This document shows, piece by piece, positions 5,334 to 30,614 of a DNA stretch of 64,000 nucleotides. The position numbers were made by a program, and so were the translations under genes. The number at the start of each line of letters is the position of its first letter. The stretch's first letter is position 1. The stretch is taken from sequence record NZ_CP070571.1. One strand, given 5' to 3'. Source of the stretch: a plasmid. The notes below the pieces were generated by a model. That model ran no database searches. It worked only from the letters and a program-made list of their open reading frames with translations, and was not told where the DNA came from.

Positions 5334-5598
5334 TTAATGACCAGCACAGTCGTGATGGCAAGGTCAGAATAGCGCTGAGGTCTGCCTCGTGAAGAAGGTG
5401 TTGCTGACTCATACCAGGCCTGAATAGCTTCATCATCCAGCCAGAAAGTTATGGAGCCACGGTTGATGAGGGCTTTATTGTAGGTGGGCCAGTTGGTTAT
5501 TTTGAACTTTTGCTTTGCCACGGAACGGTCTGCGTTGTCGGGAAGATGCGTGATCTGATCCTTCAACTCAGCAAAAGTTCGATTTATTCAACAAAGCC
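5334..5598 (-). mobile_element. IS903-group (IS5 family) left-end fragment with transposase N-terminus, truncated by the Tn21-like IR
   Basis: Ends ...caacaaagcc at 5598 (IR GGCTTTGTTGAATAAATCG). The ORF MKDQITHLPDNADRSVAKQKFKITNWPTYNKALINRG is near-identical to the first ~83 aa of the 6674-7642 transposase; the last 6 called residues run into the adjacent Tn21-type IR. Confidence 0.8.
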
Positions 5599-5925: not shown

Positions 5926-5939
5926 CTGAGCAACCAAAA

Positions 5940-6092
5940 ACTACAGATAAACTACAGATAAACTACAAAAAACGTTTTGCCTTAGTGTTGTAAGACTACA
6001 AATAGACTACAATAAAACTACAAATAAACTACAAAAAAACGTGACAGACTACAAATAGACTACAATAAAACTACAGATAAACTACAAAACTC
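5940..6092. repeat. array of ACTACA(R)ATA(R)ACTACAA direct repeats (putative StbA-binding centromere/oriT repeats)
   Basis: At least 10 ACTACA units, followed by -35 TTGACC and stbA-like gene. Mirrors the repeat array at 30198-30326. Confidence 0.6.
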
Positions 6093-6147: not shown

Positions 6148-6534
6148 ATGAATAAACCAGCAGATCTGAAACCCCGCAACTTATCGGCTGCTGTCAGATT
6201 GCGCCTAAATGAAATCGAGAACTGGCTGGACAGAGGGCTAACGCGGCATGAAATTGCTGAAATCCTCGACAGCGAATACAGCTTTTCGGTAACAGCCAAA
6301 GGGCTTGAGATGGCACTGTATAGAACGCGGCAAAACCGAAAAAATGTATTGCACAATACGCATGATAAGAGTAGCGCGAAGGGTGCAGCGGAAAGTGTAT
6401 TGCACAATACACAACCGTCTGAGCCTGAAGTGCAGGAAAGTAAAAAAGCAGAGAGTCCCGGCATTATTGATAAAGAATTCTTCAAGAAAATCGGTGAGAA
6501 TTTCGACCCTAAGAAGTTCAACAAAAAATTCTGA
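6148..6534 (+). CDS. StbA-like DNA-binding partition/stability protein (second, divergent paralogue)
   Basis: 128 aa, MNKPADLKPRNLSAAVRLRLNEIENWLDRGLTRHEIAEILDSEYSFSV. About 65% identical over the N-terminal half to the 29705-30139 product. Confidence 0.7.
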   Translation: MNKPADLKPRNLSAAVRLRLNEIENWLDRGLTRHEIAEILDSEYSFSVTAKGLEMALYRTRQNRKNVLHNTHDKSSAKGAAESVLHNTQPSEPEVQESKKAESPGIIDKEFFKKIGENFDPKKFNKKF

Positions 6535-6617: not shown

Positions 6618-7674
6618 GGCTTTGTTGAATAAATCAGATTTCGGGTAAGTCTCCCCCGTAGCGGGTTGTGTTTTCAGGCAATACGCACGCTTTCAGGCAT
6701 ACCTGCTTTCGTCATTTTGTTCAGCGCTCGTACCAGGGCCATAGCCTCTGCAACCTGACCATCGTAGTCACGCAGTGTCAGTGAACCTCCGAACAGCTGT
6801 TTTACCCGGTACATCGCCGTTTCCGCTATCGAGCGACGGTTGTAATCTGTTGTCCATTTCCACCGCGCATTACTCCCGGTCAGCCGCTGATTCGCAACAG
6901 CACGGTTACGGTCTGCATATTCACCGGGCCAGTAACCCGCGCCTTTTCGGGGCGGGATAAGCGCGCTGATTTTCTTACGCCGCAGTTCATCGTGACAGAG
7001 TTGGGTGTCGTAAGCGCCGTCTGCCGATGCTGCCCTGATTTTTCTGTGAGTCTGCCGGATAAGACCCGGGAAGGCTTCTGAGTCCGTCACATTGTTCAGC
7101 GACAGGTTTGCACAGATGATTTCATGTGTGTTGCTGTCAACTGCCAGATGCAACTTTCGCCATATACGACGGCGTTCCTGGCCATGCTTTTTGACTTTCC
7201 ATTCGCCTTCACCAAAGACCTTCAGCCCGGTGGAATCAATCACCAGATGCGCGATTTCACCCCGGGTGAACGTTTTGAAACTGACATTAACCGACTTTGC
7301 GCGCTTGCTGACACTGGTGTAATCCGGGCAGCGCAACGGAACATTCATCAGTGTAAAAATGGAATCAATAAAACCCTGTGCAGCCCGCAGGGTCAACCTG
7401 AACACGCGTTTAATGACCAGAACGGTGGTGATGGCGAGATCAGAATAGCGCTGAGGTCTTCCCCGTGATGAAGGCGTTGCCGACTCATACCAGGCCTGAA
7501 TAGCTTCATCATCCAGCCAGAAAGTTATGGAGCCACGGTTGATGAGGGCTTTATTGTAGGTGGGCCAGTTGGTTATTTTGAACTTTTGCTTTGCCACGGA
7601 ATGGTCTGCGTTGTCGGGAAGATGCGTGATCTGATCCTTCAACTCAGCAAAAGTTCGATTTATTCAACAAAGCC
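6618..7674 (-). mobile_element. IS903B-like insertion sequence (IS5 family), complete at 1057 bp, no flanking 9-bp duplication
   Basis: GGCTTTGTTGAATAAATC inverted ends at both termini. Flanks gccccgcgc and gtctgtgtt differ. Confidence 0.9.
6674..7642 (-). CDS. IS903B transposase (DDE, IS5 family)
   Basis: 322-aa ORF entirely within the IS. Confidence 0.9.
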   Translation of the reverse strand: MKDQITHLPDNADHSVAKQKFKITNWPTYNKALINRGSITFWLDDEAIQAWYESATPSSRGRPQRYSDLAITTVLVIKRVFRLTLRAAQGFIDSIFTLMNVPLRCPDYTSVSKRAKSVNVSFKTFTRGEIAHLVIDSTGLKVFGEGEWKVKKHGQERRRIWRKLHLAVDSNTHEIICANLSLNNVTDSEAFPGLIRQTHRKIRAASADGAYDTQLCHDELRRKKISALIPPRKGAGYWPGEYADRNRAVANQRLTGSNARWKWTTDYNRRSIAETAMYRVKQLFGGSLTLRDYDGQVAEAMALVRALNKMTKAGMPESVRIA

Positions 7675-8165
7675 GTCTGTGTTGTAAAATGGCGCCGAAA
7701 GCCCGGCGTAGCCGGTTGCCGGGCTATAAATTCTGCCACCCTACCCCCTGCCCTGATTAGCCTTAACTCGCGAACAGCAATGAAGAAGTCAAAGTAATCC
7801 CTTTTAACCCCGGTGAGCGGGCTTTACGGCGTTTACGACGTAAAGGGCGTGATTTCCGGGGCCTAAGCGGCGGCAGCTTGCTGCTGACGCTTAGGGGGAT
7901 GTTCATCAACTATTTCAGCGACACCAGGGAACTTAACACGGTAGCTGCAAAGCCCTAATCCCGCTCACCGCCACGCAGCTGCCGTACGTCCCCCACGGGG
8001 GTGCGCAGTGCTGCGCGCGGGAACGGCGGCCCGTCTGCGGGACGCGGCGCCGTACTGCGCGTTAGCGGCCGCACGCGGCCGGTTACGGGGGACACTCCGC
8101 CATACGACCAGCGACCCGCTGAGCTGCACAATCCACAGATAACACAAGCTACATACATGTCGATA

Positions 8166-8996
8166 TGGGAATCGGCCCACCTTGCCGGGCGCCGGTGCCG
8201 TGTGGAAATCCGCCCACCTTGCCGCGCGCCGGTGCCGTGTGGGAATCCGCCCACCTTGCCGCGCGCCGGTGCCGTGTGGGAATCCGCCCACCTTGCCGGG
8301 CGCCGGTGCTGTGTGGAAATCCGCCCACCTTGCCGCGCGCCGGTGCCGTGTGGGAATCCGCCCACCTTGCCGCGCGCCGGTGCCGTGTGGGAATCCGCCC
8401 ACCTTGCCGGGCGCCGGTGCTGTGTGGAAATCCGCCCACCTTACCGGGCGCCGGTGCCGTGTGGGAATCCGCCCACCTTACCGGGCGCCGGTGCCGTGTG
8501 GGAATCCGCCCACCTTACCGGGCGCCGGTGCTGTGTGGAAATCCGCCCACCTTGCCGCGCGCCGGTGCCGTGTGGGAATCCGCCCACCTTGCCGCGCGCC
8601 GGTGCCGTGTGGGAATCCGCCCACCTTGCCGGGCGCCGGTGCTGTGTGGAAATCCGCCCACCTTGCCGCGCGCCGGTGCCGTGTGGGAATCCGCCCACCT
8701 TGCCGCGCGCCGGTGCCGTGTGGGAATCCGCCCACCTTGCCGGGCGCCGGTGCTGTGTGGAAATCCGCCCACCTTACCGGGCGCCGGTGCTGTGTGGAAA
8801 TCCGCCCATCTTGCCGGGCGCCGGTGCCGTGTGGGAATCCGCCCACCTTGCCGGGCGCCGGTGCTGTGTGGAAATCCGCCCACCTTACCGGGCGCCGGTG
8901 CTGTGTGGAAATCCGCCCATCTTGCCGGGCGCCGGTGCCGTGTGGGAATCCGCCCACCTTACCGGGCGCCGGTGCTGTGTGGAAATCCGCCCATCT
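8166..8996. repeat. tandem array of about 22 copies of a 37-bp iteron-like unit (TGGGAATCCGCCCACCTTGCCGSGCGCCGGTGCCGTG)
   Basis: Seen directly. Head-to-tail copies without spacers, with A/G and C/T microvariants. Lies next to a truncated Rep_3 repA fragment. Confidence 0.85.
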
Positions 8997-9044
8997 TCAT
9001 GACAAAAATTTGTCAAATGACAGGCTCATGTGTGCTGATTTATG

Positions 9045-11700: not shown

Positions 11701-12063
11701 GGCTATGACTCCTCGTCTTCCCGGTGCGGGCCGTCTCCGACACTGGCAGATGGTCAGAGGGGAGATCTCCCGGTTCCCGCGTAGAGATCGTATTGACATG
11801 CCAGGGTCTCAGACCCCGCCGGGTCCATGTGGCACTCGCAGTATCGCACCCTATGATGTTGCCTTCCGTTAACAGTACAACGTCGGCACCCGGTAATTTA
11901 ATATACATTTCGTGGCTCAATGGCTGGCCTGTCAACACCCCTGTCAACGCTTCGCCCCATACCTCGCGGTATGCAACGCATGACTCGGGGACCTTGTGGA
12001 TTGCTGGTCCTTCAATGGTCGGGGACTTTCACCCCTTGATCTCTACCGGTCTCCCGGTGAACA

Positions 12064-27627: not shown

Positions 27628-28431
27628 TTAGGTTGGCTGGTATTCTGCCTTTCCGCAGTGTTCGCCACCACAGTACAGGATCAGGCCCGGCTTTCCCCAC
27701 ACGTTCGTATGGCATTTCGGGCAGGTGTATTTTGTCCGGTTTGATTTATTCACCGGCGTATCTGGCGGCGGGTTTACCAGCGAAAGGGCTTGTGTGATCT
27801 CATCGTCCAGCTCGCCATCGTCGCCGTATCCCTCGTCCTCATAATCTTCGTCATCAACATACCCTTTACCGTCTGCGCCGGTTGGCGTTGGTGGCGTTGG
27901 TTTGTGTGGCGGGAACCGATCCAGCCAGCTTAGTTTAAACTCCGTGGTAAGCAGCTCCTTGCAGGCGGTATCAAACGCGCCGCCGTCCTCGATGTAATGA
28001 CTCATGGACTCACCGACGCGCTTACCTCCTGGCTGGCCGGTGTCGGATGGTATCAGGCCGATGCGCTCCATCAACGCCGCCCATTCTTTATTGTGGTATC
28101 CACGGCGGCCCGGTTTGCCGGTGTGTTGCTGCAACTGGTGAACCATTTCATGCACAAGTGTGGAAAGCGTGTCGCGTATCGTGCGGATCGAGAAATAGAC
28201 CGGATTCATGGCGATTTCATCAACGATTTGTCCGGTTGAGCGACCAACAAAGCGACCATTCGAGAAATAGCCATACGTTCTTTTTTCGCGCTGAAGGGTG
28301 ATAAGGCAAGGCGGCAGCGCACTTTCAAACAGGCGTTGATTGAAAAATTCGTAGGCGCGTTGAAGCTCGTCGTAAGTTTCCTGGGTAGGGATGATCATAG
28401 CGGCCTCACAATGGGTTTCTGGATTGCACAA
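27628..28431 (-). CDS. SprT-like zinc metallopeptidase domain protein with C-terminal zinc ribbon
   Basis: 267 aa. HEMVHQLQQH (HExxH) motif. C-terminal CPKCH...CGGEHC. Acidic DDEDYEDEGYGDDGELDDE linker. Confidence 0.6.
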   Translation of the reverse strand: MCNPETHCEAAMIIPTQETYDELQRAYEFFNQRLFESALPPCLITLQREKRTYGYFSNGRFVGRSTGQIVDEIAMNPVYFSIRTIRDTLSTLVHEMVHQLQQHTGKPGRRGYHNKEWAALMERIGLIPSDTGQPGGKRVGESMSHYIEDGGAFDTACKELLTTEFKLSWLDRFPPHKPTPPTPTGADGKGYVDDEDYEDEGYGDDGELDDEITQALSLVNPPPDTPVNKSNRTKYTCPKCHTNVWGKPGLILYCGGEHCGKAEYQPT

Positions 28432-28475
28432 ACCATTTTATTGATTATGGATTGTGCAATCCACTTTTATTTTTG

Positions 28476-28557: not shown

Positions 28558-28611
28558 AATCGAGGCCAAAAAAAACGGCCCGGATAGGGCCGCTTCAGGT
28601 CAGGCTTTTTG

Positions 28612-28980
28612 TCAGTGAAGCAGGAACGTTATAGCCGCCGCGCCGAGCGCTCCACCAACGAAGGAACAGACAACCGTGATAATCAGAATCTGCCTGATAA
28701 GCGCTTGCGAAAACCCTGTTTGCGCTCCGGCCAGACGTTCAAAAAATTGGTCGCTAACCTTCTGCTCCTTCTTCAGAGTGTTGACCAGCTCGCGCTGGCT
28801 TGCGATCACTTCTGTTTTCGCCACCTCAGATGATTTCTTTATTTCATCGGAGGCTTTATCCAGCCGTTCTACTGTTTCGGTAACGCTTGTGGTTACGCTT
28901 TCCAGTTTTGAGGTGATTTCTTTCGCATCGCCTAAAAACCAGTCCATCAGGATATCTAATTTATCAGGTTGCTTTTCCAT
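28612..28980 (-). CDS. stbC: StbC-like protein (C-terminal TM helix)
   Basis: 122 aa, last gene of the stbABC-like operon. Confidence 0.55.
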   Translation of the reverse strand: MEKQPDKLDILMDWFLGDAKEITSKLESVTTSVTETVERLDKASDEIKKSSEVAKTEVIASQRELVNTLKKEQKVSDQFFERLAGAQTGFSQALIRQILIITVVCSFVGGALGAAAITFLLH

Positions 28981-28981
28981 A

Positions 28982-29692
28982 TTATTCAGCCGTTAATATT
29001 TCAAAGGTACGATCAAGATTACGTTTAACCGGCAGCGCTAATTTCATCCAGCGATAACGCCGCGCAGCCGCCGCGCGTTCGTCGGCATCAGTGCAGGATT
29101 TAGCTTTCGCTTTAAATGTTTCTGGATCTTCAGCCAGCAGTTCTTCAAACGAAATTTTGTGATACGCGAGGTATTCATAAATTTCACTTTCAAAAACGGC
29201 GGCATCTTTATGAATAGAGGCTTTTTTAGAATCCTTCGCCCATTCATACACTGAAGCAATATCTTCCTGCGGAGTTGCTTTAATGCGGTTAGGCAGAAGA
29301 ACAATTTTGGATTTTGGAACGCCAGCAGCGCTTAACGCGAGAGCGGTCTTAATACTTTCCTGCCATGCTTTATCATCCGGGGTAACAGGAATAAGATATT
29401 TATCAAATTCATCAATTGCACCCTCGTATTTTGTCATGGTAGAAAGAAAACGCTCTACGTTCGACGCGCCAATATCCACGATGGCGTTATCTTCAAATAC
29501 GATTTCTTCAACCAGTTGACCAAAATTATCCCCGGTCAAACTCATTACTTCATCAACACCCAAATCAGCCGCCGACATATTGATTGTCTCGATGGCAAAG
29601 AATTTTGCGCCAGCCATGCGAGGATACAGCAGGTATGACGAAATAATAGTTTTGCCGACACTGCCACTGTAGTTCATTACTGCAATTTTCAT
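28982..29692 (-). CDS. stbB: StbB-like ParA-family ATPase
   Basis: 236 aa. N-terminal deviant Walker A MNYSGSVGKT. Confidence 0.75.
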   Translation of the reverse strand: MKIAVMNYSGSVGKTIISSYLLYPRMAGAKFFAIETINMSAADLGVDEVMSLTGDNFGQLVEEIVFEDNAIVDIGASNVERFLSTMTKYEGAIDEFDKYLIPVTPDDKAWQESIKTALALSAAGVPKSKIVLLPNRIKATPQEDIASVYEWAKDSKKASIHKDAAVFESEIYEYLAYHKISFEELLAEDPETFKAKAKSCTDADERAAAARRYRWMKLALPVKRNLDRTFEILTAE

Positions 29693-29704: not shown

Positions 29705-30139
29705 TTAGAAACCTTTTTTATTACCTACGCTACCTTTGAATGAGGACGCAACTTTTTTTGCCTCATCCCCGATTTTTTTAAAATCGGTATCGGACAGAAA
29801 TTCTTTGTTCCCGCCCATATCCTCAACTAACTTTTCTGATTCTGGATTGTGCAATCCAGTATCTTCCGGTTTTGCTTCTTCCTGCGGTTTTGGATTGTGC
29901 AATCCATTTTTTACCGTACTTTCTGGATTGTGCAATCCACCTTTTTTACGCTTTAACCTGGCCCGGTACAATGCCATTTCCAGCGCTTTCGGTGTTACGG
30001 AAAAGCTATATTCAGCATCAAGCAGTTGAGCAATCTCTTGCCTCGATACACCTTTATCCAGCCAGCCCTCGATCTCATCTAAACGAGTTCGTACTGCTGC
30101 CGAAAGGTTACGAGGTTCTAACTCGGTTGCCTTTTTCAT
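29705..30139 (-). CDS. stbA: StbA-like DNA-binding protein (binds oriT-proximal repeats in R388/IncN-type systems)
   Basis: 144 aa, MKKATELEPRNLSAAVRTRLDEIEGWLDKGVSRQEIAQLL. Three GLHNP peptide repeats. Confidence 0.75.
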   Translation of the reverse strand: MKKATELEPRNLSAAVRTRLDEIEGWLDKGVSRQEIAQLLDAEYSFSVTPKALEMALYRARLKRKKGGLHNPESTVKNGLHNPKPQEEAKPEDTGLHNPESEKLVEDMGGNKEFLSDTDFKKIGDEAKKVASSFKGSVGNKKGF

Positions 30140-30614
30140 ACCCTCTCCTTCGTCTGCATTTGAATGTACGTTAACCCGTTTATCCCGTCAACCCGATTTT
30201 GTAGTTTTTTGGTAGTTTTTTAGTAGTTGGTTGCTTTTGTTTGTAGTCTATATGTAGTTATTCTGTAGTTTTTACCACAATTCAACTATCTAGGTGTGTA
30301 GTCTTTCTGTAGTCTATTTGTAGTGGCTGGTAAAAAAACTTTCATGCAAGCATGAAAGTGGTGAATGTGAACGCTTTTTGAGCGATTCACTTGCACGTAA
30401 CACCGGTTTCTCCCTTAAAAAAGGCGTGGTATGGTATCCCTTAACGGCTATACACCATACGCAATTACGATTTTCATCGTAAATGCTTGAAAACAAAACA
30501 AATTATTCTAATTTGTGTTTTAATGTGTAATACGCAACGTATTACACATGTGGAATTAAGCCGCATATATGCTAGATTTGAATGTATTACATCGGTATTA
30601 CACAAAGGAAACCT
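30140..30614. promoter_or_regulatory. oriT region. It has an ACTACA/TGTAGT repeat array (30198-30326), palindrome CTTTCATGC-AA-GCATGAAAG (30339-30358) and further palindromes (GTGTAATACG-CAA-CGTATTACAC) before the traK-like gene
   Basis: Divergent stbA / relaxosome-gene intergenic region, as in R388 and IncN plasmids. nic not located. Confidence 0.6.

Follow-up and report, generated by a model that had tools for sequence, protein, structure and literature searches.

A 16-bp palindrome linked to the plasmid protease gene mpr recurs within the stbA coding sequence, where selection appears to act on the DNA

Within a stretch of 64,000 nucleotides of plasmid DNA (in the following the window), a 16-bp palindrome is repeated in the coding sequence of stbA and again upstream of mpr, the gene of a SprT/Spartan-like zinc metalloprotease. 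Judged from its occurrence in other replicons, the palindrome (in the following the mpr box) belongs to mpr and not to stbA. We observe a family of such sites, its linkage to mpr and, within stbA, the marks of selection at the DNA level; that the palindrome is kept inside stbA by selection on the DNA itself is strongly supported by our sequence comparisons. We consider it moderately probable that the mpr box serves as an operator for a dimeric protein that controls mpr, with auxiliary copies in stbA and with Mpr as the likeliest binder.

Copies of the palindrome in the window

The 81-kb IncN+IncR plasmid pCrf-36049cz is a 100% match to the window, and IncN plasmids of ~35 kb are 98-99.6% identical to its stb-mpr region. 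Homologues of the ORF annotated here as stbA match the Pfam family PF28167 (StbA-like), and the operon order is stbA-stbB-stbC. All features are listed in Table 1. The hairpin with its T8 run 3' of stbC forms the boundary between stbABC and the mpr boxes; it is not among the output of our terminator scan of this region.

Table 1. Features of the window, with positions given for the window as a whole
Feature	Position	Strand	Remarks
mpr	27628-28398	-	SprT/Spartan-like zinc metalloprotease; acidic linker, C-terminal zinc ribbon
Proximal mpr box	28420-28435		TGGTTTGTGCAATCCA on the mpr strand; one mismatch
Distal mpr box, 5' of mpr	28448-28463		exact match to TGGATTGTGCAATCCA
Hairpin CGGCCC-TATCC-GGGCCG, then T8	28568-28592	-	3' of stbC; read by eye in the sequence
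stbC	28612-28980	-	between the two box clusters
stbB	28982-29692	-	between the two box clusters
stbA, 144 aa	29705-30139	-	N-terminal DNA-binding domain, low-complexity C-terminal tail with boxes
mpr box, stbA copy 1	29843-29858		exact match; coding strand TGGATTGCACAATCCA, GLHNP
mpr box, stbA copy 2	29891-29906		exact match
mpr box, stbA copy 3	29924-29939		exact match
Direct repeats, 11-bp period, upstream of stbA	30197-30324		ACTACA on the stbA strand; likely StbA sites, not the palindrome
Direct repeats, 11-bp period, upstream of second stbA	5938-6088		such repeats also upstream of stbA in loci L005, L006, L013, L016, L075
Second stbA, 128 aa	6148-6534	+	remnant
GT-type box in truncated IncN1-type stbA	6345-6360		TGTATTGCACAATACG; VLHNT
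GT-type box in truncated IncN1-type stbA	6396-6411		TGTATTGCACAATACA; VLHNT

The 16-mer TGGATTGTGCAATCCA is found in three exact copies within stbA, each of which codes for GLHNP, just as an earlier note on this DNA had read it from the sequence. The count and the first two positions given there (29843 and 29891) stand, while the third copy starts at 29924 and not at 29934. The same note had placed a palindrome and a half-variant at 28430-28464, upstream of the SprT-like gene. Here, the exact copy is present, the half-variant turns out to be a full 16-mer with one mismatch, and the limits are slightly off (Table 1). The end of this proximal box is 21 nt from the mpr ATG, and the box lies immediately 5' of the Shine-Dalgarno (SD) sequence. 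Both VLHNT-coding palindromes reported for the second stbA were recovered as well, at 6345 and 6396 instead of about 6344 and 6400; they read TGTATTGCACAATAC(G/A).

When up to 3 mismatches are allowed, the window holds 13 matches to the 16-mer (0.62 expected); the core ATTGYRCAAT is found 6 times (0.48 expected), and no shuffle yielded as many in either case. A chance origin of the copies in the window is excluded. A further site at 8120-8135 (TGAGCTGCACAATCCA) matches one box arm, has 3 mismatches and is probably due to chance. It precedes an array of 22.5 tandem copies of a 37-bp unit (TGGGAATCCGCCCACCTTGCCGGGCGCCGGTGCCGTG, 93% matching) at 8166-8997, which overlaps several mechanical ORFs.

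The second stbA is a remnant of an IncN1-type operon, the downstream stbB being interrupted by an IS903-like element at about 6620. Only about 25 codons of stbB are left by this element (6620-7676), and IS903-like ends are found on both sides of the stbA fragment (5560-5598 and 6620-7676); the flanking inverted repeat GGCTTTGTTGAATAAATC is presumably the IS903-like end. The fragment is present in >1,000 plasmid records, IncR plasmids being frequent among them.

Selection on the DNA within stbA

We compared 75 stbA-like ORFs (42 distinct as DNA) from complete plasmids, assemblies and metagenomes. Nearly all copies that encode VLHNT read TGTATTGCACAATACA, and nearly all that encode GLHNP read TGGATTGCACAATCCA. 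This near-uniformity extends to the base preceding the first codon and to every third position, and synonymous deviants are singletons only. For diverged stbA pairs, codon identity at identical residues is about 100% in the motif versus 35-50% outside. In four disjoint pairs, the codons are identical at 42/42 such residues in the motif versus 83/191 elsewhere (Fisher p=9e-14), which is the outcome of the stbA alignment for synonymous-site conservation that had been proposed in the earlier note.

The arms of the palindrome do not vary, while its centre varies freely (CA, TG, CG, TA). This also holds for the recurrent His-to-Tyr variant VLYNT, in which the central dinucleotide alone is altered and the arms are intact at 7/7 positions. 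Furthermore, Pseudomonas MOBF plasmids carry the same palindrome in the stbA tail in a different reading frame. That is, the single copy in p918607-IMP is read as DVDCAIQ, the four copies in a P. syringae plasmid give a (V)DCAIQ repeat, and the two copies in pGLE121P3 use two frames (VDCAIQ and NVLCNT). For a short linear motif, the peptide would be kept and the codons would drift; here, the codons are frozen and the peptide shifts with the frame. Since the arms are fixed, the centre is free and the same DNA is read in other frames, the peptide repeats are by-products.

Between 1 and 4 boxes are found among near-identical StbA proteins of 117-160 aa. The tail region of R388 StbA is described as unstructured and poorly conserved (bioRxiv 10.1101/2022.04.29.490116), and the variable copy number fits recombination between repeats in such a region.

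The frozen synonymous sites, the intact arms of VLYNT copies and the unrelated peptides from other frames bear out the earlier suggestion that DNA-level sites are selected within this coding region, as does the observation that stbA-internal and mpr-upstream copies carry the same variant within a plasmid.

Association of the box with mpr

The SprT-like gene product of pKM101 has been named Mpr (PMC7783346). We find this family in 2,464 proteins (E<=1e-10) and 2,626 plasmid records. In 18/20 diverse mpr loci (GC 32-65%; IncX3 counted by its variant box), the end of a box is located 10-37 nt (mostly 13-21) from the start codon. Per locus, one to five boxes lie immediately 5' of the mpr SD; in this comparison, the proximal box is just 5' of the SD, and a -10-like hexamer is usually found 0-6 nt further upstream. 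In the P. syringae plasmid pPK_601A (L178, 18774-18900), the mpr upstream region holds a tandem array of five boxes or half-boxes with a period of about 22 nt. Every box of this plasmid is a G/T hybrid, and stbA has to use the rare Ile codon ATA as a result; the Ile codons of its mobF are ATT (12), ATC (33) and ATA (6).

The association holds where stb and mpr are apart. In R46 (IncN1), mpr lies beside mucAB, 9 kb distant from stb, with a single TGTATTGCACAATACA 17 nt before its start, and the stbA of R46 has the same variant. One box type is shared by stbA and the mpr upstream region in IncN2-like, IncN3-like, metagenomic and Pseudomonas plasmids. A box also precedes mpr in replicons without stb genes, i.e., in an IncU (RA3-like) plasmid, a Xanthomonas PromA-like plasmid (where it overlaps TATAAT), an Acinetobacter plasmid with a Rep3-family replication gene, a Pseudodesulfovibrio contig and five IMG/VR contigs, the Mpr proteins of the latter being 40-47% identical to that of the window. 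Of the 99 matches from our IMG/VR pattern scans, most consist of a single box with no mpr and may have arisen by chance, and the scan of a genome-contig collection contributed 3 loci only. In IncX3, a symmetric variant box (TGTATCGTACGATACA) precedes an ORF of 59 aa that is coupled to mpr; in pSCKLB138-2 (L177, 6650-6866), the stop of this ORF overlaps the mpr start. The 59-aa protein is a candidate for an alternative regulator.

Conversely, we found no box in the stbA genes of R388, of a Burkholderia plasmid locus (L180) and of a small E. coli plasmid (L009), and mpr was not detected in R388, L180 (searched within 12 kb) or L009. R388 as a whole has neither mpr nor the mpr box. BLAST matches that span IncU, IncN1-3 and a Pseudomonas plasmid comprise, besides parts of the T4SS, only Mpr and a resolvase.

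In the plasmids that were scanned completely, boxes occur only at mpr, in stbA and beside adjacent terminators, bar two extra copies. These are remote from mpr, namely at the resolvase/replication border of the IncU plasmid pMBUI3 (L076, 2316) and about 200 nt upstream of korA in the Xanthomonas plasmid (L182, 6329). As regards terminators, single boxes sit beside terminator-like hairpins at the 3' end of the stb operon (L013, 11584; L015, 11581) or by such hairpins in convergent gaps after the stb operon or mpr (L007, 9192; L075, 10770); no gene start lies downstream of the boxes in these two convergent gaps.

The protein itself matches Pfam PF10263 (E=3e-10) with an invariant HEMVH, i.e., it has the HExxH zincin core of the SprT fold. 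The closest folds to its AF2 model (pLDDT 81.6) are those of Spartan (6mdx/6mdw), and the model predicts a Spartan-like protease core, a disordered acidic linker and a confidently folded C-terminal zinc ribbon. The zinc-ribbon module (NKSNRxKYxCxxC...WGKP) is conserved throughout the Mpr family.

Proposed role of the mpr box

From the above we infer repression of mpr, the identity of the binder and a role for the internal copies. The consensus TGKATTG-NN-CAATMCA would be bound as DNA by a protein and would belong in the first place to the mpr promoter or leader. Since boxes lie immediately 5' of the SD and usually right after a -10-like hexamer, a bound dimer would repress mpr, i.e., a symmetric dimer would cover the transcript start and block initiation or early elongation. 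The best candidate is Mpr itself, since the binder would be expected to travel with mpr. Mpr may bind through its conserved C-terminal zinc ribbon, which would result in autoregulation. We count against Mpr as binder that no helix-turn-helix is found in Mpr (its closest folds are proteases), leaving the zinc ribbon as the sole candidate DNA reader, and that no Mpr residues were found to track the G/T box variants.

Further copies lie where the disordered C-terminal tail of StbA is encoded and, in some cases, near terminators after stbC or mpr, and are kept there by selection at the DNA level. The GLHNP, VLHNT and DCAIQ repeats would be passengers of this DNA-level selection, tolerated because the StbA tail is unstructured. 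The stbA-internal and terminator-side boxes bracket stbB-stbC; in the window, the putative nic region is about 0.5 kb away from them. The copies within stbA could be auxiliary operators that work through looping or as a roadblock across stbB-stbC, and/or could tether the protease about 0.5 kb from oriT.

Some observations count against the operator proposal. Two of the 20 mpr loci are without a box (one mpr is operon-internal, one chromosomal), and no good sigma-70 promoter could be placed upstream of the window's mpr. In addition, a C. freundii plasmid locus has an mpr box at mpr and a different palindrome in stbA. The stbA tail of this locus (L181; NZ_OW967266.1, 1711 and 4252) carries GTTTTGCATGCAAAAG, read as VLHAK, and in the convergent gap that follows the mpr operon the same palindrome is seen again as TTTTTGCATGCAAAAA. 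Either a second family of sites or a variant with +2 spacing could account for it.

Alternative explanations

Rather unlikely, in our assessment, is a conserved host DNA-binding protein that reads the box and ties the expression of mpr (and stb) to host physiology. Such a reader would suit a 16-mer that stays nearly identical beside Mpr proteins only 40-50% identical to that of the window, a position 3/14 that accepts G or T even in one plasmid, and a protease without a classical DNA-binding fold. However, the box tracks mpr across Acinetobacter (GC 32%), Pseudodesulfovibrio, Xanthomonas and Pseudomonas, such that a host binder would have to be almost universal, and the confinement of the box in fully scanned plasmids to mpr, stbA and adjacent terminators (bar the two extra copies) also speaks against it. 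To our knowledge, the box matches no host operator. We also considered whether a uniform GG or GT type per plasmid reveals a co-evolving plasmid-encoded binder, but the boxes of L178 (P. syringae) are hybrid and those of L179, a Pseudomonas plasmid, are mixed; given these, the position is merely tolerant.

A variant with Mpr as binder, which we regard as unlikely, takes Mpr as a sequence-targeted, Spartan-like DNA-dependent protease for which the boxes are landing pads of the zinc ribbon as well as an autoregulatory operator. Since the coding region of the StbA tail would be the only 'free' DNA near oriT, pads would have been written there in any tolerated frame. If so, Mpr would be kept by the boxes near oriT and the partition complex of StbA, in a position to remove relaxase that is covalently attached or to remodel the StbA/relaxosome nucleoprotein.

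Another plasmid regulator, i.e., StbA, a KorA/ArdK (TrfB-family) repressor or KorB/ParB, is quite unlikely to bind the box. In its favour, the analogous protease gene of R388, ardC, is under repression by StbA and ArdK (PMC3937220), 7/9 positions agree between the half-site TTGCACAAT and the R388 stbDR TTGCATCAT (PMC3098194), and most of these plasmids carry a TrfB-family gene. Against StbA, its N-terminal domain follows the direct repeats upstream of stbA and is uncoupled from the box type. That is, the units of these repeats (ACTACA, TACATCA, AGACA, TACGACA or GAGACA, at a period of 11 bp) co-vary with the type of the N-terminal domain, in line with the R388 StbA-stbDR paradigm (PMC3098194). 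The element studied here is not such a set of short upstream direct repeats; it is a 7-2-7 palindrome within the ORF. Its type shows no co-variation with the domain: a Klebsiella contig (L016) combines an R46-like N-terminal domain with a GG box, and the second stbA of the window an IncN3-like one with a GT box. The pairing of repeats and domain is, in its own right, a clean case of StbA specificity co-variation that is independent of the palindrome. Furthermore, replicons without stbA still carry the box.

As to the other regulators, the operators of R388 ArdK are TTGACA direct repeats next to the -35 element of several leading-region promoters (PMC9723621), to which the box sequence is unrelated. 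In the IncU plasmid, a palindrome other than the box is located at the korA promoter, and KorB has the operator ATTTCGTACGTACGAAAT, found in three places, none of which is a box; the respective site IR-SnaBI (TTCGTACGTACGAA; PMC4175270) is located at 11754, 25578 and 33095. No ParB-family protein is annotated in the 34.6-kb IncN plasmid or in R46. StbA and a KorA/ArdK-like repressor, suggested earlier as proteins to test on the palindrome, are not supported as binders by these comparisons, and neither is an extra centromere site. We rejected two further identities of the box. It is not the KorB parS of RA3, which adjoins mpR, as the KorB palindrome has a different sequence, and it is not a relaxase site, the nic regions (GCGTATGGTGT/ATAGC and GCGTTAGGTGT/ATAGC) being unrelated to it.

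We find it improbable that the palindrome acts as a nucleic-acid structure, be it a hairpin of the mRNA leader, RNA pairing between copies or a hairpin of the transferred strand, instead of a duplex protein site. The boxes would be transcribed within the mpr leader and the stbA mRNA, regions with multiple copies fold far better than their shuffles (z -4.6 and -5.0), and the G..C to T..A changes at positions 3/14 appear compensatory. Nevertheless, the fold of the single R46 box (-7.4 kcal/mol, z 0.03) does not surpass that of shuffles, a hairpin would leave the invariant G7 and C10 in its loop, the hybrid TGGATTG..CAATACA in every copy of one plasmid breaks the supposed 3/14 pair, and some boxes lie in convergent gaps by terminators. 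Pairing of the stbA mRNA with the mpr leader RNA was rejected, as the centres of the R46 boxes are not complementary.

Very improbable, and already refuted as the main driver, is selection of the peptide repeat (G/V)LHN(P/T) itself, e.g., as a linear motif for StbB or a host partner with incidental DNA symmetry: GLHNP/VLHNT-type motifs do persist in StbA homologues as low as 46% identity, but all synonymous positions are fixed, Pseudomonas plasmids encode DCAIQ or LCNT from the same DNA, the DNA arms survive the His-to-Tyr change, and identical DNA is found in non-coding mpr leaders.

Comparison with known systems

Operators inside coding sequences are familiar from lacO2 in lacZ and the internal gal operator in galE. 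As in these systems, a promoter-proximal recognition sequence is repeated in a translated ORF hundreds of bp away, where the DNA site restricts the choice of codons; for the mpr box, the putative recognition sequence upstream of mpr is also found within the translated stbA ORF. In contrast to lacO2 and the galE operator, the copies in stbA sit outside the operon of the regulated gene (9 kb off in R46), number 1 to 4 and yield visible peptide repeats in different frames.

Another in-coding site is parS inside the spo0J/parB coding sequence, which likewise is a 16-bp palindromic protein-binding site (a putative one in case of the mpr box) within the gene of a partition protein. Here, the differences are that the IncN backbone has no ParB-family protein, that the mpr box tracks mpr and not partition genes, and that IncU KorB binds a different palindrome.

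The NrdR boxes are 16-bp palindromes read by a zinc-ribbon domain. They share with mpr boxes the size, the palindromic form and the location close to a promoter, and provide a precedent for a hypothetical reading by the Mpr zinc ribbon, while there is no sequence relation between the two.

The network of R388 StbA and ArdK resembles the present case in its oriT-stbABC-leading region architecture and in a zincin protease gene (ardC) that is tightly repressed by plasmid-encoded factors, the repression via mpr boxes being our inference. It differs in that its operators are direct repeats (TTGCATCAT, TTGACA) and that it is without mpr or mpr box.

For RA3, the respective paper describes two direct repeats overlapped by inverted repeats in the parS-oriT-mobCp region and gives the role of the region's remaining motifs as unknown (PMC4175270). 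In the RA3-like IncU plasmid pMBUI3, two copies of TGGATTGTGCAATCCAA are located between the KorB site and mpR (25677 and 25715). Equated from the text of that paper, the RA3 repeats DR1(IR)/DR2(IR) are probably mpr boxes (PMC4175270). In the literature searched, DR1(IR)/DR2(IR) are not linked to mpr, to the stbA coding sequence or to other plasmid groups.

Significance

As a kind, operators or centromere sites within coding sequences are already known (lacO2, parS in spo0J). A literature search by the core sequences gave only unrelated eukaryotic C/EBP and primer matches. The pKM101 stb/leading region is reportedly covered by Paterson et al. (1999). Within the literature searched, from whose scope older IncN work is excepted, what appears to be new is a box family tied to the gene of a Spartan-like plasmid protease, its presence in stbA in several frames with frozen synonymous sites, and the dependence of the peptide repeats on the frame.

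The mpr box presents a clear natural case of a putative protein-binding DNA site that dictates protein sequence: depending on the reading frame, one 16-mer gives rise to GLHNP, VLHNT, DCAIQ or LCNT repeats. Repeats in disordered tails can therefore reflect the function of the DNA instead of that of the protein. As a cis-element that accompanies a widespread plasmid protease gene across many replicon types, the box also offers an experimental handle on mpr, whose role is unknown, in resistance plasmids of the IncN, IncU, IncX3 and Pseudomonas groups. Finally, it suggests that mpr is tied by regulation to the stb/oriT region, where plasmid stability is balanced against transfer, a link that has gone unrecognised.
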